A model generated the notes under the pieces. That model saw only the letters and a program-made list of their open reading frames with translations. It did no database searches and was not told the origin of the DNA. The translations under genes were made by a program, and so were the position numbers. Shown in pieces: positions 4,237 to 55,085 of a stretch of DNA of 64,000 nucleotides (positions are counted from its first letter, which is position 1; the number at the start of each line of letters is the position of its first letter). This DNA is from an uncultured Bacteroidaceae bacterium (GTDB lineage: Bacteria; Bacillota; Clostridia; Christensenellales; CAG-917), in NCBI GenBank assembly GCA_964637515.1, contig CAZWUI010000002.1:16665-80664 (forward strand), read 5' to 3'.

Positions 4237-5430
<1,194 letters not shown>

Positions 5431-41240: not shown

Positions 41241-41270
41241 GAAAACACCTGTATGGGTGTTTTCTTTTTT
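41241..41270 (+). terminator. rho-independent terminator after tRNA-Leu
   Basis: Stem gaaaacacc/gggtgttttc followed by TTTTTT. Confidence 0.85.
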
Positions 41271-41401
41271 ACAACCGGGCGGAGTTGATAATTGTTAAAT
41301 GACATTCGCTATTGACGAGTCGTTTATCACGGCGAAAAGCGAGAAACTGTCGCTAACGATACACGTGTTTAGAAAAATCGGGGGGCAATTTTAGATTTCT
41401 G

Positions 41402-41430
41402 TTGCAAAGCGCAGCGGATTATGCTAAACT
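41402..41430 (+). promoter_or_regulatory. Candidate promoter of the accessory cluster's first gene
   Basis: TTGCAA (41402-41407), 17 nt, then TGcTAAACT (hexamer at 41425-41430). The palindrome GTGTATA-N5-TATACAC (41441-41459) follows. Confidence 0.5.
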
Positions 41431-41485
41431 TACTATATACGTGTATAGCGCATATACACATACGCGCGTTGCGCAGTGGAGGATT

Positions 41486-43252
41486 ATGCTTAGAACCGCA
41501 TACGTAAAAAGAACCACCTACAAGCCGATTGACTTTTTCTTCCGCGGGGTAGCGGATGCAAAGACGAAAAAGGTTGTTTTCGTAGACGCTTTCCAAATAC
41601 TTAACGACAGGTATCTCGGAAGAATGAGCGTATGCAACTATTTCTTCATAGCGGAAAACTCCGTCCGCATCAACGAATTGAACGTTATTGCGCTTGACGA
41701 ACTGACGAATTATCATCTCGTAATGCGCGCGAATTTCTTGATTCCCGAGAAGGTGACGTATAGTTTGCCTATCACGACTCGTTTTCTTGAGAACGAGAAA
41801 GAATTTGAGATATTGCTTTCGACGATCAAGGACAACGGCTACAAGAAAGGCGACCTGATCATTTCATTCAACAGCAACACCATCATGAAGATTGACGACG
41901 AAGCGAAGAAACGTTACGATCGCTTGCGCCGACTCGGATACAAGACCTGCATTAACGGATTTGGTGAGGAGTTCAACTCACTTGACGTATTTGCGCGGTT
42001 CAATTTTGATTATTTACGTCTTGAAGCGCAGTATTTTGACAGCACTCAACCCAAGAAACGCATACTGAACATGCTTGTGAAGTATTGCGGAGCGAACAAA
42101 ATCGGGCTTATTGTTGAAGGCGTAGACACCCCGGGACAACTAAATAGGTTCAAACGCGAAGGCGTGAAACTCGTGACGGGCAAAGCGGTGTCCAAACTTT
42201 CCCGTTGGGTTACGAACGAATTTTTGGGACTTCCCGAACTGAAAGGAGAGAAAAAGGAAGCCTATCTCAAGAAACTCGACAAGGAAATCACCGCTCTTGA
42301 GAATAAGGAGCAGGCGGAATACGAAGAGATGATGCGCATTGCGCGTGAAAAGGCGAAAGCGGATGCGACGAGCGGCAAAGTCCGTCCGATAGCACCGAGA
42401 CCCGAGCTTGTCAAATCTCCCTATCAAATCAGGCTCGAACAACAAAAAGAGAGAGCACGTCGTGCTGCGCTTGCAAGGGCAGAGAAATCGGCGGAGCACA
42501 AAGAAGAAGTCCGCTTGACGAGAGAAGAGTATCGAGAGCAACGACTTATCGAAGACGCAAGACACGATATGTTCGAGGGTGACGTGCAGAGCATACTTGC
42601 ATTGGGCGCACACGCGGACGAGAAAGCGAAAACCGAAAGTGCGGACGAGAAAGAGAAGAAACCCGCAAAAGCGGAAACCAAGAAGAAAGAAACCGCAAAG
42701 AAAGAAGTTGAAGTCGCACCCGAAACGGTCGAACCCGTAGTCGAAGAAAAGGCGACTGCAAAAAAGAAATCCAAGAAGACGAAAGACGTCGTCGCGGACA
42801 CCGACAAAGAGAACAAACTTCTCGGCGAGTTCAAGGGCGGTAGTCTTGACAAACAATTAGGATTCGGCAGCGGATTCGGTGGATTCGGCATCAATCTCTC
42901 TTTCAAGGACGAGGACGAAGAAGAAATCGTCGGTCACTACAACGAGAAAGGTCAGTGGATCGATGAGGACGGATATATCTACAACGGCTACTTCGACGAA
43001 AAAGGCGAGTGGCACGACTATGAGACTTTCAACGCAAACGAAGAAGGTCACTACAACGACGACGGTCAGTGGGTGGATAAGGACGGCAAAGTCTACGACG
43101 GCTACTTTGACGAGAACGGCAGGTGGATTGACTACACCTACGTGGACGACAACGGCAACACCGTATCCAACGGCTACTACGACGAGAAGATCAAAAAGTG
43201 GGTTCCGTACGGCTACTTCGATGAAGACGGCACGTGGAAACTGTATGAATAA
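41486..43252 (+). CDS. Degenerate (probably non-catalytic) EAL-like domain protein with K/E-rich coiled region and C-terminal aromatic-Gly-Asp repeats
   Basis: The EAL-domain scaffold is recognisable: YKPI for YQPI, LRRLGYKTCINGFGEEFNSL for ..lDDFGtGySSL, and LIVEGVDTPGQL for vAEGVEt..q. The catalytic signature residues are replaced: EAL>DAF, ExxE>SFNS, DD>NG, KxD>RLE, and QG>TG. RBS GGAGG precedes ATG 41486. The C-terminus has ~15-aa repeats GY(F/N)DE.G.W.D. Confidence 0.65.
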   Translation: MLRTAYVKRTTYKPIDFFFRGVADAKTKKVVFVDAFQILNDRYLGRMSVCNYFFIAENSVRINELNVIALDELTNYHLVMRANFLIPEKVTYSLPITTRFLENEKEFEILLSTIKDNGYKKGDLIISFNSNTIMKIDDEAKKRYDRLRRLGYKTCINGFGEEFNSLDVFARFNFDYLRLEAQYFDSTQPKKRILNMLVKYCGANKIGLIVEGVDTPGQLNRFKREGVKLVTGKAVSKLSRWVTNEFLGLPELKGEKKEAYLKKLDKEITALENKEQAEYEEMMRIAREKAKADATSGKVRPIAPRPELVKSPYQIRLEQQKERARRAALARAEKSAEHKEEVRLTREEYREQRLIEDARHDMFEGDVQSILALGAHADEKAKTESADEKEKKPAKAETKKKETAKKEVEVAPETVEPVVEEKATAKKKSKKTKDVVADTDKENKLLGEFKGGSLDKQLGFGSGFGGFGINLSFKDEDEEEIVGHYNEKGQWIDEDGYIYNGYFDEKGEWHDYETFNANEEGHYNDDGQWVDKDGKVYDGYFDENGRWIDYTYVDDNGNTVSNGYYDEKIKKWVPYGYFDEDGTWKLYE

Positions 43253-43257
43253 TAGCA

Positions 43258-44481
43258 ATGGCAGACGAAGTGAACAACGAAATCAATTCCGACGTCAATG
43301 AATCCGTGGCGGACGTGGCGGAGAATACCGTGGAGAAGTCCGGCAATAAGGCGGAAAAGGCGGAGAAGCCCAAAAAAATCAAGGCTCACCGCATGACCAA
43401 GGAAGAAAAGGAAGCGGCACGTGAAGCGCAAAAGGAGAAATCCCGCCGACAAAAGGAATGGGAAGATAGCCTTGTCGCGAACAAGCGTGTCAAACGAGAA
43501 GAAACTCGGCGCAAATTCAAACGTGCGTTGATGGTTCTGCTCGTGTTTTCGCTTATCTTGACGTCGGTTGTTTACATCATGTTGCTTTTCATCGAAGAGA
43601 ACAATATCCGTATCACCGCATCGTCGAAAAACGATAAGTCGATCGAGTTGTCCTTCGATCGTGACAACTGGTCGCCCTTCCTTGACGTGAAAGGTCCTGA
43701 AGATATGTGGAACGTGAGTTACGATCCGACCTACGAGCAGGGGGACGTGCTGACCTTGTCCGCTATCGAATCCAAACTCCGCGCCTATGCGGAAAATCCC
43801 GATCAAAATGCGATCAGCGGAAACCATTCTCGTAGCAATATCATCGAGTTCTGTTTCTTCTTGCGCAATAGCGGAAGTGAAAGAGTGCAATACAATGCCG
43901 AAATGCTCTTGTCATCCAACGACGAAGGTCTTGAAGATGCTATCCGTGTCGCTTGGGGGGAAGGCTACTACGGCACCAATGCAGAACAACCCGACCGCGC
44001 TCAATACGACGTCAGATGCTATGCTGCTCCGTCGGATAGAGAAGTGTTGAGTTTCAGTCAGATTGACGGCAAAGGCAACGTCTATGAACAGGGCGGTGTC
44101 GAGAAAATCGCATACCCCGCTTGGACGAGCGGTAAGTGGGACTCTGCCGCCAAAGCGCCTTGCACCACGGAACAACTCCAACAGTATGAACAAGGTCTTG
44201 TGTTGAACACCGTCACCGGAAATTATCAGGAAGTCAGCCTTCTCGACAAAAAAGGCGAACAGATTTACGATACCGCAAACGATTACCTTCTTGCCACCGG
44301 CTATCAAAACACGATACCGTTTGTCGGCAACGATTGCGTGTTCGACAACGTTTCCTACCTGAACGCAGGCGAAACACTTTGCGTCTACGTTGCGATATGG
44401 ATCGAAGGCTCCGACTTTGATTGCGGTGACAATGCAATTGACGGCTATGTCACGCTTTCGATCAACTTCACGGTGGAATAA
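43258..44481 (+). CDS. Type-II membrane-anchored TasA/camelysin-like protein (candidate fibre anchor or accessory subunit)
   Basis: ~90-aa K/E-rich cytoplasmic N-terminus and a single TM (ALMVLLVFSLILTSVVYIMLLFI). The ectodomain opens with EENNIRITASS (compare VEDLNIAVKAA in the next gene). It ends in VYVAIWIEGSDFDCGDNAIDGYVTLSINFTVE, the same motif as the 358-aa protein. Confidence 0.6.
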   Translation: MADEVNNEINSDVNESVADVAENTVEKSGNKAEKAEKPKKIKAHRMTKEEKEAAREAQKEKSRRQKEWEDSLVANKRVKREETRRKFKRALMVLLVFSLILTSVVYIMLLFIEENNIRITASSKNDKSIELSFDRDNWSPFLDVKGPEDMWNVSYDPTYEQGDVLTLSAIESKLRAYAENPDQNAISGNHSRSNIIEFCFFLRNSGSERVQYNAEMLLSSNDEGLEDAIRVAWGEGYYGTNAEQPDRAQYDVRCYAAPSDREVLSFSQIDGKGNVYEQGGVEKIAYPAWTSGKWDSAAKAPCTTEQLQQYEQGLVLNTVTGNYQEVSLLDKKGEQIYDTANDYLLATGYQNTIPFVGNDCVFDNVSYLNAGETLCVYVAIWIEGSDFDCGDNAIDGYVTLSINFTVE

Positions 44482-44636
44482 GGTTACCGTCCCCGCAAGA
44501 TTCCGTCGCTTGCTCGGAATGACATGGTGTGGCGGGGAGTGCCGTTAGGGTGTGGGTGATAGAGAAAGTTGATTGCAACTCAACTGTCATTGCGAGGAGC
44601 AATGCGACGCAGCAATCTCCGGGAAAGAAACCGCTT

Positions 44637-44666
44637 AAAAACACTCGATGAGTGTTTTTATTTTTC
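44637..44666 (+). terminator. rho-independent terminator ~155 nt after the 43258-44481 gene
   Basis: Stem aaaaacactc/gagtgttttt with a 3-nt loop, followed by ATTTTT. Confidence 0.8.
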
Positions 44667-44973
44667 TTGAAAAGAGAAAAAATAAAAAAAATATTAAAAA
44701 AATTTTCTTTAAAAGAGTGAAAATAGTTTAAGTGAGAAAAACGCATATGCGTGCGTATATGGGCGTATGCACACGAGGCTGATATATTAAAATAATATGC
44801 AAGAAAACGGCGAAAAAATCACGAAATATGGATAATTTGATGAATAAAAATACGGCAGTTCAAATATGGTTGAAGAGTTAAGATCCGCGGAAAACTCGGG
44901 AAAAATTCACGGAAAAAGTGCATTATTTCGAGAGAAAATCAACAGATATCGGGGTCGTGTTGAAAAAATATCA

Positions 44974-45002
44974 TTGACAAATTTTTGCAATAATTATACA
45001 AT
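44974..45002 (+). promoter_or_regulatory. Near-consensus sigma-A-type promoter of the fibre-subunit gene
   Basis: TTGACA (44974-44979), 17 nt, then TACAAT (44997-45002). It sits at the end of a ~500-bp very AT-rich tract and leaves a ~200-nt leader. Confidence 0.65.
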
Positions 45003-45073
45003 GTTCGTGAATAAGAGTGGGTTGGTGTGCATTCTCACGCGGAGTGCGCGCGCAAAACATGATTGTTCGGGCG

Positions 45074-45114
45074 CATTAAAGGGGCAATAGTTGCGTATGC
45101 GGCGACATAAGCAC
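45074..45114. repeat. Left copy of a 41-bp inverted repeat (in the fibre-gene 5' leader)
   Basis: cattaaaggggcaatagttgc-gtatgc-ggcgacataagcac. The reverse complement of 46626-46666 is identical in both arms (21 + 14 nt) and differs only in the 6-nt centre (ttacgt). Confidence 0.9.
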
Positions 45115-45212
45115 TCACTATGAGAGGGCGTCCTCAAGTTAAAAGAAAATAATCAAACAAAATATAAAAAGTCGGTCGGAGCGGAAGTGACGGCTGATGA
45201 AAAGGAGAGATT

Positions 45213-46289
45213 ATGAAAAAGAAAGGTTTGATAGTAGCAACCATCGTGATGGTACTCGTCCTTGCAGTATCACTCTCGACCGCAACCTACGCCTGGTTCT
45301 CTAGCGAAGCTCAAGCCACTGTTGAAGATTTGAACATAGCAGTCAAAGCGGCAACCGGTGTTGAAATTGCTGTTTATGAATCCGGTGACAAGTATTTCAA
45401 CGGTGATATGACTTATTCGCAAGACACTCAAGCTTGGAATTCTGAAACAGAAGGTTTTGGCACCTTGCTCAATTTCAGCAATATCGACCTTGGTCAAATT
45501 AACAATGCTATCCTTTATGCAAGTAGCACAAATTTGAATAATGTTCCTGCCGCAGCAAAATTTGTTTATACTATAGGAACAAAAGAAGTTGGCGCAACCC
45601 TTACTACGACTGACTATATCATCAATGCAGACGGCAGCATCACTCAATGCACTGCAGATTCTCAAGCTGTTGCAGATACCACTTATGCAACGAGAGTACC
45701 ACTTACGGCAGATAGCAAATTCTACAGACCTACCGGACTTGACAATGCCGGTGATCCTTATGGATTCTACGTTGCAAAACCCAACGATAAGATTACAAAC
45801 GTCTATACCACATATTATGACATTCCTCTTGCAATGCGTGCGGTTAAGAACACTAACGGCATCGTCTGCACTCTCAAGATTAAACCCAACGGAGATATTA
45901 CAAACACATTGTATCCCGGAATGGCGGCATCCACTTATGTCAATATGTATATCACCAATGCTTCCGGCGAACAATACGCAGCGACTTTCGAAGCATATAA
46001 GTCTGCAACTTATTCATCAGGTGCAATCACCGGTGAAATTGAAACCGAAGGCGCATACTCTTTCGTCGTAGCAAAAGGTGCTCTTACTACAAGCGATATT
46101 TACAAAATTCGTTTCGAAATCTGGGTTGAAGGCACTGATCCTGAATGCAACAACACCACCACTCAAGCAACCGACTTCTACGTTGATTATTCCTTTGACG
46201 TCATCGATGAAGAAATTACCGGCACTAGCATTGATAAAGAGGGCGTAACTTATCAAGTTATTGACGGCTTGACTCAAACCAAAGCATAA
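45213..46289 (+). CDS. Secreted TasA/camelysin-like protein with SipW-cognate-type signal peptide (candidate major fibre subunit)
   Basis: RBS AAGGAGAG. The N-terminus MKKKGLIVATIVMVLVLAVSLSTATYA|WFSSEAQATV parallels B. subtilis TasA ...GGGTWA|AFNDIKSKDATF in position and pattern. The C-terminal IRFEIWVEGTDPECNNTTTQATDFYVDYSFDV fits the W..(6-8)..N..Q..alternating-hydrophobic end of the TasA/camelysin family. SipW-type peptidase genes are adjacent. Confidence 0.7.
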   Translation: MKKKGLIVATIVMVLVLAVSLSTATYAWFSSEAQATVEDLNIAVKAATGVEIAVYESGDKYFNGDMTYSQDTQAWNSETEGFGTLLNFSNIDLGQINNAILYASSTNLNNVPAAAKFVYTIGTKEVGATLTTTDYIINADGSITQCTADSQAVADTTYATRVPLTADSKFYRPTGLDNAGDPYGFYVAKPNDKITNVYTTYYDIPLAMRAVKNTNGIVCTLKIKPNGDITNTLYPGMAASTYVNMYITNASGEQYAATFEAYKSATYSSGAITGEIETEGAYSFVVAKGALTTSDIYKIRFEIWVEGTDPECNNTTTQATDFYVDYSFDVIDEEITGTSIDKEGVTYQVIDGLTQTKA

Positions 46290-46310
46290 AAACTAAACCA
46301 AACCTTACAT

Positions 46311-46341
46311 AAAAAAGAGAGCCAAACGGCTCTCTTTTTTA
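46311..46341 (+). terminator. rho-independent terminator after the fibre-subunit gene
   Basis: Stem gagagcc/ggctctc with loop aaac, flanked by AAAAAA and TTTTTT. Confidence 0.85.
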
Positions 46342-46398
46342 TTCAGTTCAGTCGGTTAGAACTGCGGTTTTTGTTGCGTTTGCAAAATAACCGTTCCA

Positions 46399-46430
46399 CA
46401 AAAAAAAGAGCCATTGCGGCTCTTTTTTTA
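46399..46430 (-). terminator. Mirror-image terminator belonging to the decayed convergent paralogue
   Basis: Stem gagcc/ggctc flanked by A- and T-tracts. Its minus-strand flank ctagaccaaacctaaacacataaaaaaagagcc closely matches the plus-strand flank ctaaaccaaaccttacataaaaaagagagcc after the intact gene. Confidence 0.7.
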
Positions 46431-46453
46431 TGTGTTTAGGTTTGGTCTAGTTA

Positions 46454-46625
46454 TCAAGTACCACTTTCTGTGGTTCTAGCAGGATGGTTGGTGCTGAAAT
46501 TGATATAGATTTCAGAAGAAACACCTTTTGCTTGGTCGCAGCAGTCGGTATCGGTTCCGTCAATTCAAATAAGAAGATGAATTTGATAAATGGTTTGTCT
46601 GTCCAGATAATTAGTGCCAGTAGTG
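46454..46625 (-). pseudogene. 3' remnant of a third TasA-like paralogue with an in-frame TGA at the conserved Trp
   Basis: Minus-strand translation is ..TTTGTNYLDRQTIYQIHLLI*IDGTDTDCCDQAKGVSSEIYINFSTNHPARTTESGT*. It aligns with ..LTTSDIYKIRFEIWVEGTDPECNNTTTQATDFYVDYSFDV of the intact gene. The TGA (46565-46567) replaces the W codon. There is no start codon, RBS or N-terminal ~300 codons, and the remnant abuts the right inverted repeat. Confidence 0.7.
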
Positions 46626-46666
46626 GTGCTTATGTCGCCACGTAAGCAACTATTGCCCCTTTAATG
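46626..46666. repeat. Right copy of the 41-bp inverted repeat
   Basis: gtgcttatgtcgcc-acgtaa-gcaactattgcccctttaatg, which is the reverse complement of 45074-45114 except for the central 6 nt. Confidence 0.9.
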
Positions 46667-46752
46667 TGACGAAACAAAACGTGCGCACGGGTGGGAAAAT
46701 ACAAAATCGGGCGGAGTTTGGCAGGGTGGAAGTCGCTGTGTGAAAATTGGGG

Positions 46753-46781
46753 TTGACACTATTCACTATTAGTTATATAAT
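46753..46781 (+). promoter_or_regulatory. Consensus sigma-A-type promoter of sipW-like gene 1
   Basis: TTGACA (46753-46758), 17 nt, then TATAAT (46776-46781). It leaves a ~190-nt leader. Confidence 0.7.
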
Positions 46782-46974
46782 AACTATGAGTAAGTGGGGT
46801 GGTCCCTGCTCGCTCGTTATCCTGCTCGGTCGTCAAAGCGGTTCATTCCGTGCTAGGGCAATAAGCATTCGACTATCGGGCTACAAATTCGCTTGCGGAG
46901 AACGTAGCGTGCCGTTCGGCACGTGTAAAGGGCAATAGGCATTTGTTTTCGGCAGGAAAGGAAAAGGGATTTTT

Positions 46975-47784
46975 ATGTCCAATCTGTTTGCAAAAAGAGA
47001 GAAAAAAGAACTCTCTCCATCTCAACAAAAAGCCAAAACGATTATCGGGTGGGTGGTCAGTGCAATCTGTATCGTCATCATAATCGCCGCTTTGGCTATC
47101 TCCGTGCTCACCATCACTCGCACAACGAGCGATAACGGTGTGGCACATCTCGGGAAGCACACGTTCAATTCCGTCGTCACCGACTCAATGGAACCGACTA
47201 TTGCGAAAGGTGAACTCATCATCGCGAAGGTCTACAACGACGAAACCGATCGTGGCTCTTTGCAAGTCGGGCAAACTATCGTCTACAAAAAACTTATGTA
47301 CAATAGCGCCGCCGGCGGAAACGTCGAAGTGTTTTTCGTGCATAGAATAGATAGTCTCGGCGCTGCGTCTTGCCACGTCATAGGCGACAATCCCAACACC
47401 GCCGAACAAGATGATAACGTTTCGTACAACAATATCATCGCGACTTGGGGCTCTCCCGCAACTCTCAACGAGGACGGCACTTTCACCGTCACCAAGGATA
47501 GCAAGGGCGCATCGCTTGGCAAGCTCGGCACTTTCGTCAACTGGCTCCAAGAAGACCGCACCAATTATTTCTGCGTGATAGTTTTGCCGCTCATTTTGCT
47601 CTTCGTCATCTACGGTTTCGTGCTTATCCGCGCTCTCGTCATCGCAAAACTCTCAAAGGATAACGAGAAGAAGTCCGTCAGCGTCGAAGACCTGTCCGAA
47701 GACGAGAAAAAACGCCTTGCCGCAGAGTTGCTCGCATCTCTCACCGAAAAGAAAGAAACCGAACAAATCGACTCCGATTCGTAA
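46975..47784 (+). CDS. SipW-type (ER/archaeal-type, S26B) signal peptidase I, long form with C-terminal TM and acidic tail
   Basis: N-terminal TM. Ser box VVTDSMEPTI, His box FFVHRID, and GDN box VIGDNPNTAEQD, compared with B. subtilis SipW SGSMEP / THRIV / KGDNN..D. A second TM (YFCVIVLPLILLFVIYGFVLI) and the tail VEDLSEDEKKRLAAELLAS follow. Confidence 0.85.
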   Translation: MSNLFAKREKKELSPSQQKAKTIIGWVVSAICIVIIIAALAISVLTITRTTSDNGVAHLGKHTFNSVVTDSMEPTIAKGELIIAKVYNDETDRGSLQVGQTIVYKKLMYNSAAGGNVEVFFVHRIDSLGAASCHVIGDNPNTAEQDDNVSYNNIIATWGSPATLNEDGTFTVTKDSKGASLGKLGTFVNWLQEDRTNYFCVIVLPLILLFVIYGFVLIRALVIAKLSKDNEKKSVSVEDLSEDEKKRLAAELLASLTEKKETEQIDSDS

Positions 47785-47959
47785 CCGTCTTCAGAGAACG
47801 CAGACTCTTGCGATGCTTTCGTTTCTGCAGAGAATAGCGAAATTCAATCGTCGGATACCGCCGACGTTTCTGATACCATAGGGGAGGAAGGCGGGCAACA
47901 ATAACCGTGCTTTTCGGCGCGAGTTTTGACGTCTATGACGTCAAGTCCGTGATAATATT

Positions 47960-49480
47960 ATGAATATTAGTCTTGTTTTCAAATTTTTGAGAGCGTTCCT
48001 CGGAGCGTTCTACGTTAATGGCATCGGCTCTATCTTTTGGGGTTTCTTGCATATCTTCTACAACGACGGTTACTCGGAGGCTTTCAAAAACTACACCGAC
48101 CAGTTCGGCGCAGGCGAGTGGGCTGTCTCCATTATCTTTATCATACTCATCATCGCCGCTATCGTCGCTATTGTCGGCCTTATCGTTTTCGGCATAATCA
48201 AGCTCGTGCGTATCAATAAAAACGTCGTCCTCCCTCAAGACCTCGTCGAAGAATGCGCCAACCTCAAAAAACAAATCATCAAAATGTCCGCCGAAAAGGA
48301 TAGAATCCTCGGTATGAAGGTCAGCGACGTCGGCAACTACGACGGCGAAGAGCCCGAAGAAGGCAAAGAGCCCAGCGCTGAAGAAGCCGTCAAAGCAGGG
48401 GAGTCGCGTTTCTACAAACTCACCGAAATCGACCAAATCTACGAAAATTACGTTCCCCCTGTATACGACGACGAGATCACTCTTCCCGAACTTTGCGACC
48501 GTTTCAGAAATTTCGCATGCTCGCGTATGCGCCTTTTCTATAATCCGCGTATCATCCGCTTGTTCATCGCAGGTATGTCAACTTCGCGTTTGATGATCTT
48601 GCAAGGTATTTCCGGTACAGGTAAAACTTCACTCCCGCACGCTATGGGTATCTTCCTCAATAACCCCGCAACTATCGCTTCCGTTCAGCCGTCTTGGCGT
48701 GACCGTACCGAACTTTTCGGCTACTTCAACGAATTTACAAAACGATTCAACGAAACCGAAGTCTTGAAAAAAATGTACGAGGCGACTTGGAATAAGAATA
48801 TCTACCTCACCGTCCTCGACGAAATGAACATCGCGCGTGTCGAGTACTACTTCGCAGAAATGCTCTCCATTCTCGAAATGCCGTCCCGTGACGAGTGGAT
48901 CGTTGACCTTGTTCCGTCAGGTTGGCCTAATGACCCGAAACATATCGATAAAGGCCGTTTCAAACTCCCCGAAAATATGTGGTTCATCGGCACCGCAAAC
49001 AACGACGACTCCACCTTCGCTATCTCGGATAAGGTTTACGACCGTGCTATGCCTATCAACATCAACTCCAAAGGCGTCGCTTTCGACGCTCCTTATGCGG
49101 AGTCGATCTATATCAGTTACGAGCACCTTGAAAGTATGTTCAAGGACGCTATGGTCGAACATAAGGTGTCTCAAGAAAACCTTGACAAAATCGACCAACT
49201 TGACGACTACGTCATCAAACACTTCAGACTCGCATTTGGTAACCGTATCGTCAAACAGCTCAAAGAATTTGTTCCCGCTTACGTCGCTTGCGGTGGTACC
49301 GAACTAGACGGTCTCGATTACGTTCTTTGTAACAAGATTTTGCGTAAGTTCGAATCCCTCAACTTGTCCTACATCCGCGACGAAATCGACGGTCTAATCC
49401 TTTATCTGTCTGATCAGTTCGGGGAAGACTCGATGGAAGAGTGCAAGGAGTATTTGCAACGCTTGAAGAAACTCTTTTAA
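47960..49480 (+). CDS. Membrane-anchored McrB-like AAA+ (AAA_5 family) NTPase
   Basis: Two N-terminal hydrophobic helices (res ~8-32 and ~55-80) and a coiled coil. Walker A LQGISGTGKTS, Walker B with McrB-family continuation LTVLDEMNIARVEYYFAEMLSILE, and WFIGTANNDDSTFAISDKVYDRAM (an NxxD like McrB NTAD). No obvious RBS. Confidence 0.75.
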   Translation: MNISLVFKFLRAFLGAFYVNGIGSIFWGFLHIFYNDGYSEAFKNYTDQFGAGEWAVSIIFIILIIAAIVAIVGLIVFGIIKLVRINKNVVLPQDLVEECANLKKQIIKMSAEKDRILGMKVSDVGNYDGEEPEEGKEPSAEEAVKAGESRFYKLTEIDQIYENYVPPVYDDEITLPELCDRFRNFACSRMRLFYNPRIIRLFIAGMSTSRLMILQGISGTGKTSLPHAMGIFLNNPATIASVQPSWRDRTELFGYFNEFTKRFNETEVLKKMYEATWNKNIYLTVLDEMNIARVEYYFAEMLSILEMPSRDEWIVDLVPSGWPNDPKHIDKGRFKLPENMWFIGTANNDDSTFAISDKVYDRAMPININSKGVAFDAPYAESIYISYEHLESMFKDAMVEHKVSQENLDKIDQLDDYVIKHFRLAFGNRIVKQLKEFVPAYVACGGTELDGLDYVLCNKILRKFESLNLSYIRDEIDGLILYLSDQFGEDSMEECKEYLQRLKKLF

Positions 49481-49643
49481 ACGACGCTATTTGGCGCCTT
49501 GCGTTGTCGGCTTTACGGGTGCTCGCACTCACGTACTACGTGTACGTTTCACGCTTGCCTTCCGCACCTTCCCGGCAATGCATCCAAATATCGCCGTTTG
49601 GGGTGGACTGAACAGTGTGTGCGTGACGTCATAGCAGTTCTCT

Positions 49644-52559
49644 TTGCGGCTGTTTGAGTTCGATAAGAGTTTCGTACGCTTGGCGACAAAACCTATAAGC
49701 ATTAACGTATATCGCTTTGCGATAATGAGAGATATGTCCGATAATAAATTGACCAAAGACGTTTATCTGCAGTATGCTAAAAAAATCGTTTCCGTTCTCT
49801 ACGGCGACGACTTCTTTAACCAATACAAAAAAAGAGTCGACGACGGTTTCGCAGATTTCAAACTCGTCAAAAAACGCCTAATTCAAGATATTTCCGTCGA
49901 TTGGATCGATACAATCGAGGACGTCTTGCCCAATCTCGATGCTATCGTCCGTAACCCACGTAGGTTCATCGTGCAGGAAGAAGATATCGTCGATATTTCG
50001 CTCGCAAAGGCTATCTCTACCGAGTCCGTCAAACACCTTGCGCAACATACCAATATGATCTCCAAGGTCGACGAGGACGGCACCGTTACCCCTAACAGAA
50101 TACTTAATATCACAAAGGAAGAATCCTTTGAAATATACGAAAACCGCTTTATATTCACCTTGCTTTTGAAGCTCAAAGACTTCGTGCAGATGCGCTACGA
50201 CAAAATCAAAAAGGCATCCGCAACTCAAGATGTCTTGCAGCTCAACGTGGATAGCAAGTTCAATTTGCCGTCAAAGAAGGTCACCTATCGAACGGAATAT
50301 ATGGCGCAACTCAGTTTCGACGAGGTCATGAGAATGGACCCCGAAACCCTCGAAAAAATCGAAAGAGTTGCCAAAATCGACAGAATTATCACCGACTTTT
50401 TGAGTTCGTCTTTCGCAAAGTCGATGAGAAATTCCGCTCCCGTCCGTCCGCCTATCACGCGTACTAACGTCATCTTGAAAGAACCTAACTTCAAGAAAGC
50501 GTTGACTCTTTGGCAGTTCATCGAAACATATCAGGCGACCGGCGGTTTCTCCACGTCGGACGATATCGAGGACTACAAAATCGAGGATAATTCGCAACAG
50601 CAACTTCGTCAAATGGTCACTCTCAATACCATGCTTTTCGAGAGTCTATACGACCAGCACGAAACGGATATGGACCTCGACGACGCTCAATTCACCGACC
50701 TTTTGAGAGTGGGCGACCTCGACTTCGGCAAGGACGAAATCCAACACGACGAATACTCTCAAAAACTCGACGAAGAAGATAAGACGGAAGATAGCGATAA
50801 GCAGGAAGAAGTTTCTCAAACGGAGTCCGAAGAACAAAAGGAACAAGAACAAGAAACTCCGCCCGAAGAAGTCGAAGTCGAAAAAGAAGTCATCGAAGAA
50901 CAAGAAATCGAAGTGGATAAGGACAAAGAAGTCGAAACACCTCCCAAGGACGAGCCCGACGACGAAGAGCCCGATGCCGATAAATTCGATCAAAACCTGT
51001 TCGATATACGAAAACTCTATAAACGCCCCGAAGATGACAAACTCCGTCAGGAAGAAGTGTCCAAAATCAAGGACGCTATCGATCGTTGTCTTGTCGCATA
51101 CCGCAAAATCAAACAGGAAGAACTCGACGAAAGAGACCGCGAAGAGAATGCGAAACGCAGAAAAGCAGAACTCGAAAAACGTGCGGAAGCTTTCCGTTCT
51201 AAAAAAGCGGAATTCGGCGATCAGGACGGACAAATCTATCTCGGTACGGACGCTTTCGGCAAGTCCGTCGTGCAGGATAAGAAAGAAGAATTCAAGAAAG
51301 CACATAAAGAACTGTTCTCAAATCGTAACGAACGCCTCGATCTCGGCGATAAGGACCTTGAAAATATCCGCAAGAGTATTGAAGCTATGGAACAGGAACG
51401 CGCAAAAGACGAAGAACGTCGCAATAAAATCGCGTTCGCAGGAGACGGAGAAGAGAGAGAAGTTGATGAAACCGATATTCCCGTCGTCGATCTCGACGCT
51501 CAACTCAAAGCGAAAGAAGAACTCGAACGCAGAAATTCCGTTCGCTTTGACGGTGAGAGAAATCTACTTGCAGGCGGCATAGGTGCGGACACTTCATTCG
51601 TCGATAAACGCAAGAAGAAAACAGAAGAAATCAAACCGCGTACGACTACGCTCAAACCGACTTCAAGCAAGGTCAAACGTCAACGCGTCATAGAGCCCGT
51701 GGACGAAAATAAGGTCAAAGTCGGAGATGCTCCCGTCCAATTCGACGACGGATTCGGCAATACGTTCGGTGAACAAAAAGCAAATCTCGGCGACTTGTCC
51801 ACCGTGCAAAAACCCGCTCGCAAGAAAAAGAAATTGGAAGAAGTCGTACCCGAAAACGCAGACGTCAAGACCGAAACCGCGGTCGAAACCGCTCCCGAAA
51901 CGGTCAAACCCAGAACCAGAAAGGCAGAGCCTAGAGATCCGTGGGCATTGTCGCCGACCACACTCAATCAACGCTACGACGTCGCAAGCGGTAAAGTGCG
52001 CAACTTCGAGGCGGTTGACGAAAACAAGGTCAAAGTCGGAAAAGCCCCCGTAAAGAATGCGAACGCAGGGGACCTTCTCGACGATACGTTTGAAGACCAA
52101 AGAGCAAATCTCGGCAACTTCGACAAGAAACCTGTGGTGAAAGTCGAAGAAAAGACGGAAGAGCCTAAACCCGTCAAGAAGAGAACGAGAAAGCCTAAAA
52201 CTGAAAAAGCACCCGAAGTGAAATCCGAAGATACGGCGGAAACCGCAGGTGCCGATACCGCACAGGAAAGCAAGGTCGAAACTCCTGTCGCAGAAGAGAA
52301 GAAAGAAGAAAAGAAACCAAAAATCAGAAAGGCAGAGCCTAGAGATCCGTGGGCGTTGTCCCCGACCACTCTCAATCAGCGTTACGACGTTGCAAGCGGT
52401 AAAGTGCGCAACTTCGAGGCGGTTGACGAAAACAAGGTCAAAGTCGGAAAAGCCCCCGTAAAGAATGCGAACGCAGGGGATCTTCTCGACGATACGTTTG
52501 AAGATCAAAAGGCAAATTTGGGTATAAAAAAGAAGAAAAACGAGGATGATAAGGATTGA
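49644..52559 (+). CDS. Large acidic protein with McrC/DUF2357-like N-terminal domain, no recognisable nuclease, and a C-terminal repeated module
   Basis: It lies immediately downstream of the McrB-like gene. Residues ~90-190 fit the McrC N-domain/DUF2357 pattern (...RRFIVQEEDIVDISLAK...ITKEESFEIYENRFIFTLLLKL...). I see no D..(D/E)xK motif. Residues ~340-700 are E/D/K-rich. A 66-aa module occurs twice, plus one degenerate copy. The true start is uncertain (ATG 49644, 49725 or 49734). Confidence 0.6.
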   Translation: MRLFEFDKSFVRLATKPISINVYRFAIMRDMSDNKLTKDVYLQYAKKIVSVLYGDDFFNQYKKRVDDGFADFKLVKKRLIQDISVDWIDTIEDVLPNLDAIVRNPRRFIVQEEDIVDISLAKAISTESVKHLAQHTNMISKVDEDGTVTPNRILNITKEESFEIYENRFIFTLLLKLKDFVQMRYDKIKKASATQDVLQLNVDSKFNLPSKKVTYRTEYMAQLSFDEVMRMDPETLEKIERVAKIDRIITDFLSSSFAKSMRNSAPVRPPITRTNVILKEPNFKKALTLWQFIETYQATGGFSTSDDIEDYKIEDNSQQQLRQMVTLNTMLFESLYDQHETDMDLDDAQFTDLLRVGDLDFGKDEIQHDEYSQKLDEEDKTEDSDKQEEVSQTESEEQKEQEQETPPEEVEVEKEVIEEQEIEVDKDKEVETPPKDEPDDEEPDADKFDQNLFDIRKLYKRPEDDKLRQEEVSKIKDAIDRCLVAYRKIKQEELDERDREENAKRRKAELEKRAEAFRSKKAEFGDQDGQIYLGTDAFGKSVVQDKKEEFKKAHKELFSNRNERLDLGDKDLENIRKSIEAMEQERAKDEERRNKIAFAGDGEEREVDETDIPVVDLDAQLKAKEELERRNSVRFDGERNLLAGGIGADTSFVDKRKKKTEEIKPRTTTLKPTSSKVKRQRVIEPVDENKVKVGDAPVQFDDGFGNTFGEQKANLGDLSTVQKPARKKKKLEEVVPENADVKTETAVETAPETVKPRTRKAEPRDPWALSPTTLNQRYDVASGKVRNFEAVDENKVKVGKAPVKNANAGDLLDDTFEDQRANLGNFDKKPVVKVEEKTEEPKPVKKRTRKPKTEKAPEVKSEDTAETAGADTAQESKVETPVAEEKKEEKKPKIRKAEPRDPWALSPTTLNQRYDVASGKVRNFEAVDENKVKVGKAPVKNANAGDLLDDTFEDQKANLGIKKKKNEDDKD
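51917..52523 (+). repeat. Intragenic direct duplication: two 199-bp copies with 408-bp period
   Basis: 51917-52115 and 52325-52523 are near-identical, with a central ~100-bp stretch that matches exactly. Both encode RKAEPRDPWALSPTTLNQRYDVASGKVRNFEAVDENKVKVGKAPVKNANAGDLLDDTFEDQ(R/K)ANLG. Confidence 0.92.
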
Positions 52560-53362
52560 TGTCCCCGGAAACTAAAACTAAAATCAAAAAAATATATAAT
52601 ATTTTTTCCACGGTTATATTCGCCGTGGTTTTCCTTTTCTTCGTGCTGGTCATAATATTTTCTATGGTGCAGAAAAACCAAGGAAAAGACGTCAAGATTT
52701 TCGGGCATTATATGTACACAATTCTCACGGATAGTATGGTGCCCACTCTAAATCCGTCAGACGTCATTTGGTGCAAGGCGATAGAAGAAGGGGATATTGT
52801 CGAAGGCGCGATTATAACCTTTGTTGTGCCCGAAGGACACGGCGGTTTGTCGGGTAGAAACGACACTCATAGAATTGTGGAAATCGAGCGTGACGAAAAC
52901 GGCATTATCACGGGTATTTACACTCAAGGGGACAACAGCACCGTCAGGGATAATTGGAAATTGACAGTGGACGACGTGAAGGCGGTTATGTCAAAAAAAC
53001 TCGTGGTCGTCAGTGCGCTCATCAAATTCATAAGCGAATATAGATTCTTGGCATATATGGTGTTAATCGTCCTACCTCTCGGCTCGATAGCGGTCATGTT
53101 TGGAATATCCTACGTCAGGGAGAAAGTCAAGGAAAAGAAAGCGGAAACCGCAGGCGGAGAAGTCGCACTTGACGATTTGTCCGACGAGGACAAGAAAAAG
53201 ATGCTTGAAGAATTTTTGGCGCAGTCAACGGCAGAAAAATCTGAGAGTGAAGAAAACGATCAATTTGGCGAAGGAAACTCACTGCAAACGACAGAAGATG
53301 CGATTAGAATGCCTGAAAACGACGAAAACACTCCCGAATGCAACGAAAACAGTGACGATTGA
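52559..53362 (+). CDS. Second SipW-type signal peptidase I, long form with C-terminal TM and acidic tail
   Basis: Ser box ILTDSMVPTL, His box DTHRIVE, GDN box TQGDNSTVRD, a second TM (FLAYMVLIVLPLGSIAVMFGI), and the tail LDDLSDEDKKKMLEEFLAQ. ATG 52559 overlaps the TGA of the preceding gene (TGATG). The ORF-track start 52556 is a TTG. Confidence 0.85.
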   Translation: MSPETKTKIKKIYNIFSTVIFAVVFLFFVLVIIFSMVQKNQGKDVKIFGHYMYTILTDSMVPTLNPSDVIWCKAIEEGDIVEGAIITFVVPEGHGGLSGRNDTHRIVEIERDENGIITGIYTQGDNSTVRDNWKLTVDDVKAVMSKKLVVVSALIKFISEYRFLAYMVLIVLPLGSIAVMFGISYVREKVKEKKAETAGGEVALDDLSDEDKKKMLEEFLAQSTAEKSESEENDQFGEGNSLQTTEDAIRMPENDENTPECNENSDD

Positions 53363-53430
53363 CAATTTGAAAACGGTCGTTTCGTGGAAAGAATAAAACA
53401 AAAAAAATTGAGAAAATAATCACAGATTTG

Positions 53431-53457
53431 CGCACTCTAACGGGTGCGTTTTTCTTT
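53431..53457 (+). terminator. rho-independent terminator closing the accessory cluster
   Basis: Stem cgcac/gtgcg (extendable) followed by TTTTTCTTT. Confidence 0.65.
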
Positions 53458-53555
53458 GCGGTCGCAAGCGGGGTATTTTGTTCGTTATCGCTCTTGCGTT
53501 TTCGCCAATACTATGCTAAAATAAGATACTAATATAATATATAATGGAGTTTGCT

Positions 53556-55085
53556 ATGCTGGCGAAAGTCAAAAGTTACGCTCTCGACGGGCTTATCGGC
53601 TATGAAGTCGACGTCGAACTCGATATAAACAGCGGTCTTCCGTCTTACGAACTCGTAGGACTTGCCTCCACTGCGACGAAAGAGTCGAAAGAAAGGGTGC
53701 GTTCCGCGGTCAAAAATAGCGGTTTCACTTACCCTATGAAGAGAGTCACCATAAATCTTGCGCCCGCAGACGTGAAGAAAGAAGGTCCGTCCTTCGATTT
53801 GCCCATTGCGATTGCAATGCTACAAGCAAGCGAGCAAATTCAATCCAAGAAGTATAAGGATTTCGTTTTCGTCGGTGAACTCGGACTCGACGGCAGACTC
53901 CGCTCGGTCAATGGCATAATGCCCATACTCCTTTCTGCATTGCAAGCGGGGTGCAAAAACTTCGTCATTCCGTCCGCTAACGCCAAAGAGGCAAGTTATA
54001 TTGAAGGGATAACCGTTTACGCTATGGACGGATTGAAACAGGTGGTGGATTTCTTGAACGGCGGAGAATATTCTCCCGTCGAAACATCCGATTTCGTGTC
54101 CGTATGCACGGTGCACGGCTACGGTGTGGATATGAGCGACGTGAAAGGGCAGGCGGTAGCAAAACGCGCCCTTGAAATCGCAGTGAGCGGTGGACACAAT
54201 CTTCTCATGCTCGGACCTCCCGGAGCGGGCAAGACTATGCTTGCAAAATGCGTGCCTACCATTATGCCGGATATGTCCTTTGAAGAAGCGGTCGAAGTCA
54301 CAAAGATACATTCTGTTTCGGGGATTTTGGACCCGTCCGTCGGCATAGTCACCACAAGACCTTTCAGGACTCCGCACCACACCACTACGGTGCCTACTCT
54401 CGTCGGTGGCGGAGCGAAAGCGACTCCCGGTGAAGTCAGTCTTGCGCATAACGGCGTTTTGTTCCTTGACGAAATGCCCGAATATAGCCGCAGAGCGTTG
54501 GAAACTCTCCGTCAACCCCTTGAAGATAGGCGGGTTACGGTGGCAAGAGTGGCAAGAAGCGTGGAATATCCCTCGAACTTTATGCTCATTGCGAGTATGA
54601 ATCCCTGTCCTTGCGGAAACTACGGCAGTAGAACGCAGGTTTGTAGGTGTACGCCCGCTCAAATTCATACCTACGTGTCGAAACTATCCGGTCCGTTGCT
54701 CGACAGAATAGACTTGCAAGTCGAAGTGGACAACGTCGTCTACGAAGAATTGAGAGGACGAGATAAGGCGGAATCGTCGGCGGAGGTCAAGGCCCGTATC
54801 AACCGCGCAAGAGAGTTGCAAGCAAAGAGATTTGCAGAGGACGGTATCTCCACAAACGCCGAAATGGAAAGCAAACAAATAGAGAAATATTGCAGTCTTG
54901 ACAGCGACGGCGAAAGGCTGTTGCAAAAGGCATTCGACAGACTCAATCTATCCGCACGAGGTACGACGAGAATACTCAAAGTCGCAAGGACGATAGCCGA
55001 CCTCGACGGTAGCGAAAACGTACTTGGCAAGCATATTGCCGAAGCGATACAATATCGCAGTCTTGATAGGAAATACACCATATGA
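53556..55085 (+). CDS. comM: YifB/ComM-family Mg-chelatase-like AAA+ ATPase
   Basis: N-terminal Lon-protease-like domain, Walker A GPPGAGKTMLA, Walker B LFLDEMPE, and CxC...C motif NPCPCGNYGS..C.C. The start was placed at ATG 53556 after GGAG. Confidence 0.92.
   Translation: MLAKVKSYALDGLIGYEVDVELDINSGLPSYELVGLASTATKESKERVRSAVKNSGFTYPMKRVTINLAPADVKKEGPSFDLPIAIAMLQASEQIQSKKYKDFVFVGELGLDGRLRSVNGIMPILLSALQAGCKNFVIPSANAKEASYIEGITVYAMDGLKQVVDFLNGGEYSPVETSDFVSVCTVHGYGVDMSDVKGQAVAKRALEIAVSGGHNLLMLGPPGAGKTMLAKCVPTIMPDMSFEEAVEVTKIHSVSGILDPSVGIVTTRPFRTPHHTTTVPTLVGGGAKATPGEVSLAHNGVLFLDEMPEYSRRALETLRQPLEDRRVTVARVARSVEYPSNFMLIASMNPCPCGNYGSRTQVCRCTPAQIHTYVSKLSGPLLDRIDLQVEVDNVVYEELRGRDKAESSAEVKARINRARELQAKRFAEDGISTNAEMESKQIEKYCSLDSDGERLLQKAFDRLNLSARGTTRILKVARTIADLDGSENVLGKHIAEAIQYRSLDRKYTI

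Follow-up and report, generated by a model that had tools for sequence, protein, structure and literature searches.

A membrane-anchored McrB-like GTPase, SipW-type signal peptidases and exported proteins are encoded together in a conserved module of Christensenellales and Oscillospirales

We analyzed a stretch of 64,000 nucleotides (the window) from contig CAZWUI010000002.1, positions 16,665 to 80,664 of the forward strand, in assembly GCA_964637515.1; the source is named as an uncultured Bacteroidaceae bacterium and is placed by GTDB in the Christensenellales (CAG-917). Between a tRNA-Leu and comM lies a gene cluster that encodes a GTPase and a partner protein related to McrB and McrC, two SipW-type signal peptidases, two related exported or membrane proteins and a degenerate EAL-domain protein. 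An original prediction, made from the letters of the window, had described eight features here. All eight were found where it had placed them, on the forward strand save for a pseudogene on the reverse strand. By open reading frame (ORF) listing and profile searches, the cluster is bounded upstream by the tRNA-Leu terminator (41241-41264) and downstream by comM (53544-55085), and its parts are these:

41402-43252, forward strand: g1, a degenerate EAL-domain protein (Pfam EAL, E 3e-24, 86 bits).
43258-44481, forward strand: g2, a bitopic membrane protein (one strong transmembrane [TM] segment predicted at residues 94-112).
45213-46289, forward strand: g3, a predicted exported subunit with signal peptide MKKKGLIVATIVMVLVLAVSLSTATYA followed by WFSS (site STATYA/WFSS).
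46454-46677, reverse strand: a decayed, inverted paralogue of g3, comprising its C-terminal 53 codons (46454-46615) and a copy of the leader (46626-46677).
46975-47784, forward strand: g5, a SipW-type (archaeal or endoplasmic reticulum-type) signal peptidase I with two TM segments (TIGR02228, E 3e-9; SipW, E 2.2e-8).
47960-49480, forward strand: g6, a membrane-anchored McrB-family GTPase of the NxD branch (family profile against PDB; E. coli McrB, E 5.7e-8).
49734-52559, forward strand: g7, an McrC-like protein (Pfam DUF2357, 34.9 bits; cutoff 23.3).
52556-53362, forward strand: g8, a second SipW-type signal peptidase (TIGR02228, 49.7 bits; SipW, E 6.8e-12).

Relatives of the g6 GTPase number more than 8000 at 90% clustering and occur in at least 585 GTDB species genomes. 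L001 to L083 denote loci fetched for comparison. ORFs were called in 81 loci, and the window proteins served as queries against them; the counts that follow are restricted to GTDB species-genome loci with enough flanking sequence. Of the 80 GTDB loci fetched, most bear labels of Christensenellales or Oscillospirales (Acutalibacteraceae, Ruminococcus CAG:488, Faecousia), and across these two orders g6 GTPase identity is 55 to 98%. A DUF2357 (McrC-like) gene lies directly 3' of the GTPase gene in 70/70 loci. All 51 loci scored for the remaining genes encode a peptidase, and all 51 encode a g2- or g3-like protein; a g2-type gene is found in 47 of the 51, an EAL gene in 35 and a second peptidase gene downstream in 30. 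The usual order, EAL-g2-g3-Sip-GTPase-McrC(-Sip), recurs amid quite different flanking genes, and the motor proteins are under strong purifying selection, without decay. The notion that homologues of these genes are never co-localized in related genomes fails decisively against the 70/70 and 51/51 counts. Since gene linkage is conserved, we place the motor, the peptidases and the exported proteins in one pathway, as had been argued from the TGATG overlap of the g7 stop and the g8 start, which we confirmed. This functional linkage is strongly backed and is the best-supported part of our analysis.

The cluster had also been described as an accessory one that interrupts conserved synteny. That description does not hold: the GC content of the cluster is that of its surroundings, and its placement between tRNA-Leu and comM is kept in relatives whose GTPase is 85 to 98% identical. 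Because the position is kept in these relatives, the cluster is no recent insertion, and native GC content together with conserved position ruled out an accessory island. We conclude that the cluster is one inherited module across Christensenellales and Oscillospirales.

The GTPase g6 had been called McrB-like, and rightly so: the only PDB sequences matched by a profile of the g6 family were those of E. coli McrB (E 5.7e-8; 6HZ4, 6UT6). The protein carries a Walker A motif GISGTGKTS, a Walker B motif LDEMN and the signature GTANNDD. An ungapped hidden Markov model alignment to McrB alone cannot separate NxD followed by D from NxxD; in a joint alignment, g6 GTANNDDST lined up with GTANHDETT of a Rhodoferax CoCoNuT-like protein and GTLNMDHTV of B. 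cereus, while E. coli McrB has GLMNTADRS. The NxD-branch pattern is N[NHM]D[DEH], versus NTAD in McrB. Outside the catalytic core, the N-terminal 190 residues comprise hydrophobic or TM sequence, a coiled-coil-like segment and an acidic linker, with no McrB-type N-terminal DNA-binding domain. Two TM helices had been proposed as the anchor. Anchoring stands, but only one TM segment is clear (residues 58-76), the other candidate being a weaker hydrophobic segment at the N terminus. The coiled-coil-like segment is short (about residues 88-125), and the sequence VLPQDLVxExxNLKKQxxKxSAEKDRILGMKVS is conserved on the C-terminal side of the TM segment. Relatives of the GTPase domain, at 38-41% identity (E ~1e-41), include plasmid-borne CoCoNuT-like GTPases, whose neighbors are DUF2357 or nuclease proteins. 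Separately, PADLOC paired g6 with the candidate defence protein PDC-M26A (E 1e-36; positions 314-436 in a profile of 724), which itself appears to be a coiled-coil McrB-like GTPase; PADLOC gave no match for any other cluster protein.

For the partner protein g7, the ORF opens at TTG 49644, but orthologues indicate ATG 49734 as the most likely start. The length would then be 941 rather than the 971 residues first given; the accompanying claim, a DUF2357-like protein in which no nuclease is visible, was borne out. DUF2357 was matched in 25/25 members of the g7 family. The domain fills an N-terminal region of about 310 residues and is followed by a region rich in E, K and D and by three repeats of about 100-136 residues (nt 51684-52528), so that past about residue 340 the protein is charged low-complexity sequence and repeats. 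No nuclease family was matched anywhere in g7 in Pfam, NCBIfam or PADLOC, and none was found in its N-domain by PDB profile search or Foldseek. Foldseek of the N-domain against PDB returned nothing below E 0.1 (the best entry, a V-ATPase stalk subunit at probability 0.15, was disregarded), and the g7 profile found no McrC among PDB sequences. As there is no match to an McrC structure, the McrC identity of g7 rests on DUF2357 and on gene position. The repeats (VDENKVKVGxAPV...DxFxxQ[KR]ANLG) match no family and are confined to the six closest loci; over 209 nt, two of the copies have 93% identity. In L001 the g7 orthologue instead has a long, helix-like tail rich in K and E.

McrB forms GTP-hydrolyzing hexamers that are activated by the N-terminal domain of McrC inserted in the ring (6HZ4, 6UT6). 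Judged from their sequences, g6 and g7 are an McrB (NxD)/McrC (DUF2357) pair that has apparently lost the DNA-binding and nuclease parts, with g6 apparently gaining a membrane anchor. The pair resembles CoCoNuT (CnuB/CnuC) and canonical McrBC in its GTPase, 38-41% identical to the CoCoNuT-like proteins and with McrB as sole PDB match, and in its DUF2357 partner, and by homology one would expect here too that the GTPase forms a hexamer whose pore takes up the McrC N-domain. It differs from both in having no DNA- or RNA-binding domain and no detected PD-(D/E)xK, HEPN or other nuclease, in the membrane anchor of g6, and in its neighbors, which are exported proteins and peptidases instead of methyltransferases or nucleases. 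Neither of the two hallmarks of canonical McrBC type IV restriction, a PD-(D/E)xK McrC and a DNA-binding McrB N terminus, was found.

It had been thought that no link between such genes and an McrBC-type motor was on record. One is: under the name CoCoPALM, Bell et al. (2024, eLife; PMC11090510) report McrB GTPases of the NxD type that are joined to an FtsB-like TM segment and coiled coil. In the paragraph that they devote to these systems, with analysis deferred to a later paper, coiled coils are reported on both the McrB and the McrC homologues and a role in pilus assembly is proposed independently (PMC11090510). A literature search found no follow-up paper on CoCoPALM. We compared the window cluster with that description. 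The NxD signature followed by D or E is present in g6 as GTANNDD; the FtsB-like TM segment and coiled coil may have counterparts in residues 58-76 and the coiled-coil-like segment of g6, with no Pfam DivIC/FtsB match; the adjacent DUF2357 McrC homologue, usually with a coiled coil, corresponds to g7 with its DUF2357 domain and E/K/D-rich region; and linkage to the signal peptidase family is provided by g5 and g8. Given the NxD signature, the TM anchor, the DUF2357 partner with a charged tail and the peptidase linkage, we filed the locus as a putative CoCoPALM member. The CoCoPALM paragraph of Bell et al. (PMC11090510) mentions neither the g2/g3 subunit family and its T-[YF]-A/W-F motif nor the degenerate EAL partner, the peptidase tail motif and the inverted paralogue pairs described below. 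The present analysis gives CoCoPALM, so far a class in name only, a set of concrete parts: a candidate subunit family and the motif at which it would be cleaved, a paralogue that stays anchored in the membrane, an EAL partner that is degenerate, a conserved tail motif in the peptidases, and pairs of inverted paralogues.

Both peptidases retain the catalytic boxes of the SipW type (SMEP, HRI and GDN in g5; SMVP, HRI and GDN in g8), in agreement with the prediction of two SipW-type peptidases with Ser, His and GDN boxes, although their TIGR02228 scores of 36.9 bits (g5) and 49.7 bits (g8) lie below the curated cutoff of 51.85. A g8-type orthologue in L001 reaches 98 bits. Strict regular-expression counts of the boxes over all peptidase orthologues proved too crude and were not used. 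The cytoplasmic C-terminal tail of g5 (nt 47620-47784) carries the motif LSEDEKKRLAAELLASL and the tail peptide EDEKKRLAAELLASL. By inspection, many upstream-type peptidases across lineages carry E[ED]xK+xA[IV]xEYLAxQ in this tail, sometimes in two or three copies; the short downstream-type peptidases mostly do not have it. A partner in the cytoplasm might dock on this motif.

The peptidases are encoded beside two related proteins. In g2 a charged cytoplasmic N-terminal tail precedes the TM segment and an ectodomain follows it, with no SipW cleavage motif; g2-type proteins always have the cytoplasmic tail and the uncleaved TM helix. By hhalign (probability 96.5%, E 9e-10), the g2 and g3 families have homologous C-terminal halves, which end in [IV]W[IVL]EGxDx[ED]C. 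The observation that the g2 ectodomain ends in the same motif as g3 was well founded; the copies are IWIEGSDFDC in g2 and IWVEGTDPEC in g3 (in common, IW[IV]EG[ST]DxxC). We regard g2 as a candidate membrane-anchored base or initiator subunit, and g3 is plausibly the major exported subunit of the module. A motif-based search of the loci returned 38 g3-type signal peptides, and all 38 contain [ST][AS]T[YF]AWF. A first impression that the whole 29-residue g3 signal peptide is invariant (100%) was dropped: in the GTDB loci the cleavage motif alone is constant, and the hydrophobic core differs from lineage to lineage. We did not generalize the 29-residue invariance because a word-seeded search selects shared N termini.

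The position of g3 cleavage, inferred to lie after TYA, invites comparison with TasA, whose site is cut by SipW and has Phe at P2' (PMC10269814); the g3 site T-Y-A/W-F matches such a site. The AlphaFold2 model of g3 (mean pLDDT, the per-residue confidence score, 88) is mostly beta-strand, and residues 20-24 and 32-35 fall below 50. The low-confidence segment at residues 32-35 lies just past the cleavage site and, as modelled, would be compatible with a donor strand. In Foldseek, the TasA fibre 8aur_A was matched with a top probability of 0.91 (E 2.7e-3, TM-score 0.23/0.33). Profile searches were negative. Neither g2, g3 nor the L001 paralogues had a Pfam match, Peptidase_M73 included; TIGR04088 was matched in 3/49 members at best E 0.016 and TIGR04090 at E 0.076 for one L001 protein, all of them insignificant; and the g3 profile found nothing among PDB sequences. 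When the g3 profile was run with HMMER against the full set of 1.84 billion representatives, the matches listed (the best 150) were core family members only, and no bridge to TasA was therefore possible. On these results, the claim of a TasA-like g3 is a weak one. Among the profile matches that had been expected, those to DUF2357 and EAL materialized, SipW and TIGR02228 scored below cutoff, and those to Peptidase_M73 and the SipW-cognate signal profiles were insignificant. We conclude that g3 plausibly works like TasA, without counting it as a member of the TasA family.

Set beside the tapA-sipW-tasA operon of Bacillus subtilis and sipW-bsaABC of Clostridium perfringens, the cluster is alike in encoding a dedicated SipW-type peptidase next to its putative substrates, in the Thr-aromatic-Ala/x-Phe site, and in predicted beta-sandwich subunits with a flexible N-terminal segment; g2 is comparable to TapA or BsaB as an accessory paralogue. 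It differs from these operons in that g2 and g3 have no significant Peptidase_M73, TIGR04088 or TIGR04090 match and only a weak structural match to TasA, in its McrBC-derived motor encoded within the operon, in its two peptidases, and in the retained, uncleaved TM helix of g2.

The g3 family evolves quickly. It falls to 47% identity where, at similar rank, the GTPase stays at 85%, and it comprises 3321 clusters at 50% identity. Up to four further g3-like paralogues follow the McrC-like gene in other lineages. Fast divergence of g3 beside slow divergence of the GTPase is what one typically sees where a conserved machine serves an exposed structural subunit; together with the paralogue sets, it looks like an arrangement of one major subunit, several minor ones and a base anchored in the membrane.

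One paralogue lies inverted beside g3 in the window itself. The decayed third paralogue had been noted before, and we found it at 46454-46615 on the reverse strand, where the frame reads TNYLDRQTIYQIHLLI, an in-frame stop in place of the motif Trp, and then IDGTDTDCCDQAKGVSSEIYINFSTNHP. A 52-nt inverted repeat (I1) pairs the g3 leader (45063-45114) with 46626-46677 at 87% complementarity. At the same place, L004, L017, L007 and L012 have an intact inverted paralogue. In L004, whose GTPase is 98% identical to g6, two convergent intact g3 paralogues share an inverted repeat of 376 nt at 99% identity (4915-5290 and 8365-8740) that spans the leader and the signal-peptide codons; L017, from another family, has one of about 172 nt at 98-99% identity (4497-4666 and 6749-6919). 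The inverted repeats suggest inversion or gene conversion that would swap variable subunit bodies between expression sites.

The EAL-like protein g1 had been said to have lost its catalytic signature, and this is so. Its start codon is uncertain (TTG 41402 or an ATG 28 codons downstream). The EAL domain occupies about residues 44-265 and is followed by a charged linker and EAGR-box-like repeats (nt 42932-43249). Against solved EAL domains, EALxR is replaced by DAFQI, ExxE by SxxS, DDFG by NGFG, KxD by RxE and QG by TG; counting EGVD as well, the motifs at these positions fall short of what an EAL phosphodiesterase needs for catalysis, namely E(AL)xR, N, ExxE, DD, K, E and Q. Cluster-linked EAL proteins are degenerate in 39/39 aligned loci. 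The best NCBIfam match of g1 is LapD. Like the degenerate EAL receptors LapD and FimX, g1 has an EAL fold that has lost its catalytic residues, and it is likewise encoded alongside what we propose to be a surface-structure system. In contrast to them, it has no GGDEF, HAMP or TM segment and carries EAGR-box repeats instead, and the window protein additionally has neither the EALxR arginine nor the DD pair. Because these residues are missing, binding of cyclic di-GMP (c-di-GMP) by g1 is uncertain. A link of the cluster to c-di-GMP had been suggested. No GG[DE]EF motif is present in the window or in 83 fetched loci, and the EAL domain is degenerate in every lineage; a c-di-GMP link is therefore only a possibility, a weak one that we consider doubtful. 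The C terminus of g1 carries three to four of the EAGR-box-like repeats (GxYxxxGxWxDxDG), which score 28.5 bits against the Pfam EAGR_box cutoff of 27 and also match TIGR03834. This tail is shared only by the three closest loci. The EAGR-box motif is otherwise known from terminal-organelle proteins of Mycoplasma.

A scan for promoter and terminator consensus sequences divided the cluster into three transcription units, g1-g2, g3 alone and g5-g6-g7-g8, with the following predicted signals:

44636-44660, forward strand: terminator-like hairpin at the end of the g1-g2 unit (consensus scan only).
44974-45002, forward strand: near-consensus g3 promoter, TTGACA-17-TACAAT (promoter scan, 11/12 matches).
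44974-45212, forward strand: g3 promoter and leader region, with a structured 5' untranslated region (5'UTR) of about 200 nt.
46315-46429: two terminator hairpins that face each other between g3 and the decayed inverted paralogue (inverted repeat I2 and terminator scan).
46753-46781, forward strand: promoter of the g5-g8 operon, perfect consensus TTGACA-17-TATAAT (promoter scan, 12/12 matches).
46753-46974, forward strand: g5-g8 promoter and 5'UTR of about 190 nt (promoter scan, leader alignment).
53430-53449, forward strand: terminator-like hairpin that ends the g5-g8 operon just 5' of comM (consensus scan).

The g3 leader folds better than shuffled sequence (z-score -3.4). In a leader alignment, the two long 5'UTRs (45010-45212 and 46788-46974) have similar 5' ends and share TAAAGGG(G)CAATAG. 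The motif is absent from all other loci examined and is therefore no general cis-element. We also considered a c-di-GMP riboswitch or another known RNA family for the two leaders and rejected this, there being no Rfam match at E<=1. Elsewhere, L030, L031, L032, L035, L041, L047, L048, L054, L058 and L064, whose labels are for the most part Acutalibacteraceae or Ruminococcus, have a conserved hairpin TTTGGCGRCGSGTTAACGGTCGCCAAGG and, after it, AAATCTTTATGGAGGTAAAGA in front of g3, at about 40 nt upstream of its ATG. This may be a leader element specific to one lineage.

Two further observations concern individual loci. In L001 (12224-20250), a metagenome-assembled genome (MAG) labelled Ruminococcaceae/Oscillospiraceae, extra genes follow the McrC-like gene. 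They encode three further g3-like paralogues, with signal peptides that end in AATFSWF, GGTLAWF and FTFTWV, a 205-residue protein with TATFAWI, a 2023-residue LRR_5 protein and a bona fide SipW (TIGR02228, 98 bits). Some MAGs with a Clostridia-type cluster (L004, L007 and L029) are labelled Bacteroidaceae, Anaeroplasmataceae or Bacteroidales; these labels are probably binning or labelling errors.

What might the module do? We hold with moderate confidence that it is a CoCoPALM-class system, a dedicated apparatus that makes a cell-surface protein fibre or pilus. The features that we counted for a fibre are the domain identities, the placement of g6 in the NxD branch, the linkage counts, the g7/g8 overlap, the interleaved gene order, the paralogy of g2 and g3 and the divergence of g3, as well as the modelled beta-sandwich of g3 with the TasA fibre as its match of highest probability, the TasA-type cleavage site, the CoCoNuT-like nearest relatives of g6 and the pilus-assembly role put forward by Bell et al. 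(PMC11090510). Under this proposal, g3 would be inserted in the membrane via its conserved N-terminal helix and cleaved after TYA by g5, g8 or both, which would free its disordered N-terminal segment to act as a donor strand, as in TasA, and g3 subunits would then polymerize on a g2 base. Under the membrane, a g6 hexamer would hold the g7 N-domain in its pore, as McrB holds McrC, and GTP hydrolysis would gate or power the hand-over of subunits, the extrusion of the fibre through the wall or its remodelling. The motor may couple to the peptidase via the conserved cytoplasmic tail motif of g5, and the degenerate EAL protein may be a non-catalytic regulator or adaptor. BsaA of C. perfringens is a SipW-dependent, membrane-anchored polymer of the TasA family whose efficient export needs the NTP-driven type IV pilus machine (PMC11580942). 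By analogy, BsaA and the type IV pilus genes may be a precedent for an NTP-driven machine that helps a SipW-dependent polymer out of a Gram-positive cell.

Several points weigh against this proposal. The fibre is a prediction from genes, and no fetched locus is recorded as from a cultured strain; that a GTPase ring in the cytoplasm is coupled to a polymer outside the cell is wholly an inference. In structure, g3 resembles TasA weakly (TM-score at most 0.33), with SUN and CBM32 jelly rolls scoring similarly, and Pfam, NCBIfam and PDB profile searches gave no sequence-profile link between g3 and TasA, camelysin or BsaA. On the motor side, the AlphaFold2 model of the g7 N-domain (nt 49722-50663) is only of moderate confidence (pLDDT 72.8), with low pLDDT in the DUF2357 loop at residues 84-134 of the model, and found no McrC structure, and a Pfam hmmscan of 25 members gave no DivIC/FtsB match at the g6 N terminus. 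The very high conservation of g6 across the two orders would also fit a more basic envelope function.

Such a function can be spelled out. An FtsB-like-anchored GTPase might govern how wall-associated beta-sandwich proteins (those of a surface layer or septal structure, for example, or of a spore coat or appendage) mature, where they are placed or how they turn over, as part of an envelope, division or sporulation machine that builds no pilus. We consider this unlikely. Conservation of the GTPase at a housekeeping-like level (55-98% over two orders) and inheritance of the cluster in place speak for it, as do the g2 protein that remains membrane-anchored, the g3 structural matches that are generic jelly rolls and the FtsB homology that Bell et al. 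report for the N terminus in their CoCoPALM text (PMC11090510). However, the major-plus-minor paralogue sets and the very fast-evolving subunit better fit an abundant exposed polymer, and so do the strong separate promoter of g3 and the inverted paralogue pairs with near-identical 5' ends; nor are division or sporulation genes consistently linked to the cluster.

The history of the motor raises another explanation, which we rate as improbable: a relative of CoCoNuT derived from type IV restriction, in which a membrane GTPase senses phage infection and the peptidases and exported proteins are effectors or receptor-masking decoys. Outside its own family, the g6 GTPase domain is indeed closest to plasmid CoCoNuT-like defence candidates, g6 matches PDC-M26A (E 1e-36), the exported proteins are hypervariable and the inverted-repeat arrangements resemble variation systems. 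Yet no nuclease or other toxic effector domain was detected, PADLOC recognizes only g6, and the cluster has a fixed chromosomal position and native GC content. Its GTPase, strongly conserved and present in at least 585 species genomes, is unlike patchy, fast-turnover defence islands. Finally, a tasA-sipW-like matrix operon might simply lie beside a decayed McrBC remnant; g3 has its own promoter and terminator, and tasA-sipW operons exist without a motor. Such chance adjacency is close to refuted and very improbable indeed in our estimate, given linkage in 51/51 and 70/70 loci over two orders with differing flanks, the interleaving of peptidase genes with motor genes, the overlap of g8 with g7, and motor proteins that are under strong purifying selection and not decaying.

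Returning to the fibre or pilus, a bolder generalization can be framed, which we offer tentatively and hold to fall short of an even chance. The module, and CoCoPALM generally, would be an unrecognized NTP-driven pilus or fibre machine of Gram-positive cells, in which a stripped, tethered McrBC motor assembles SipW-cleaved donor-strand subunits on a paralogue that is anchored in the membrane. Inversion or gene conversion at the near-identical inverted 5' ends would exchange one variant of the major subunit for another, and the product would be a dominant structure on the surface of many uncultured gut Christensenellales and Oscillospirales. To our knowledge, almost no surface biology is known for the gut-associated Clostridia groups that carry the GTPase. 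If the proposal is true, a restriction-enzyme motor would have been converted to an engine for the assembly of a surface structure, a new way to build fibres across the Gram-positive envelope, and the very variable exported subunit would be a candidate for a major antigen and adhesion factor of commensal gut Clostridia.

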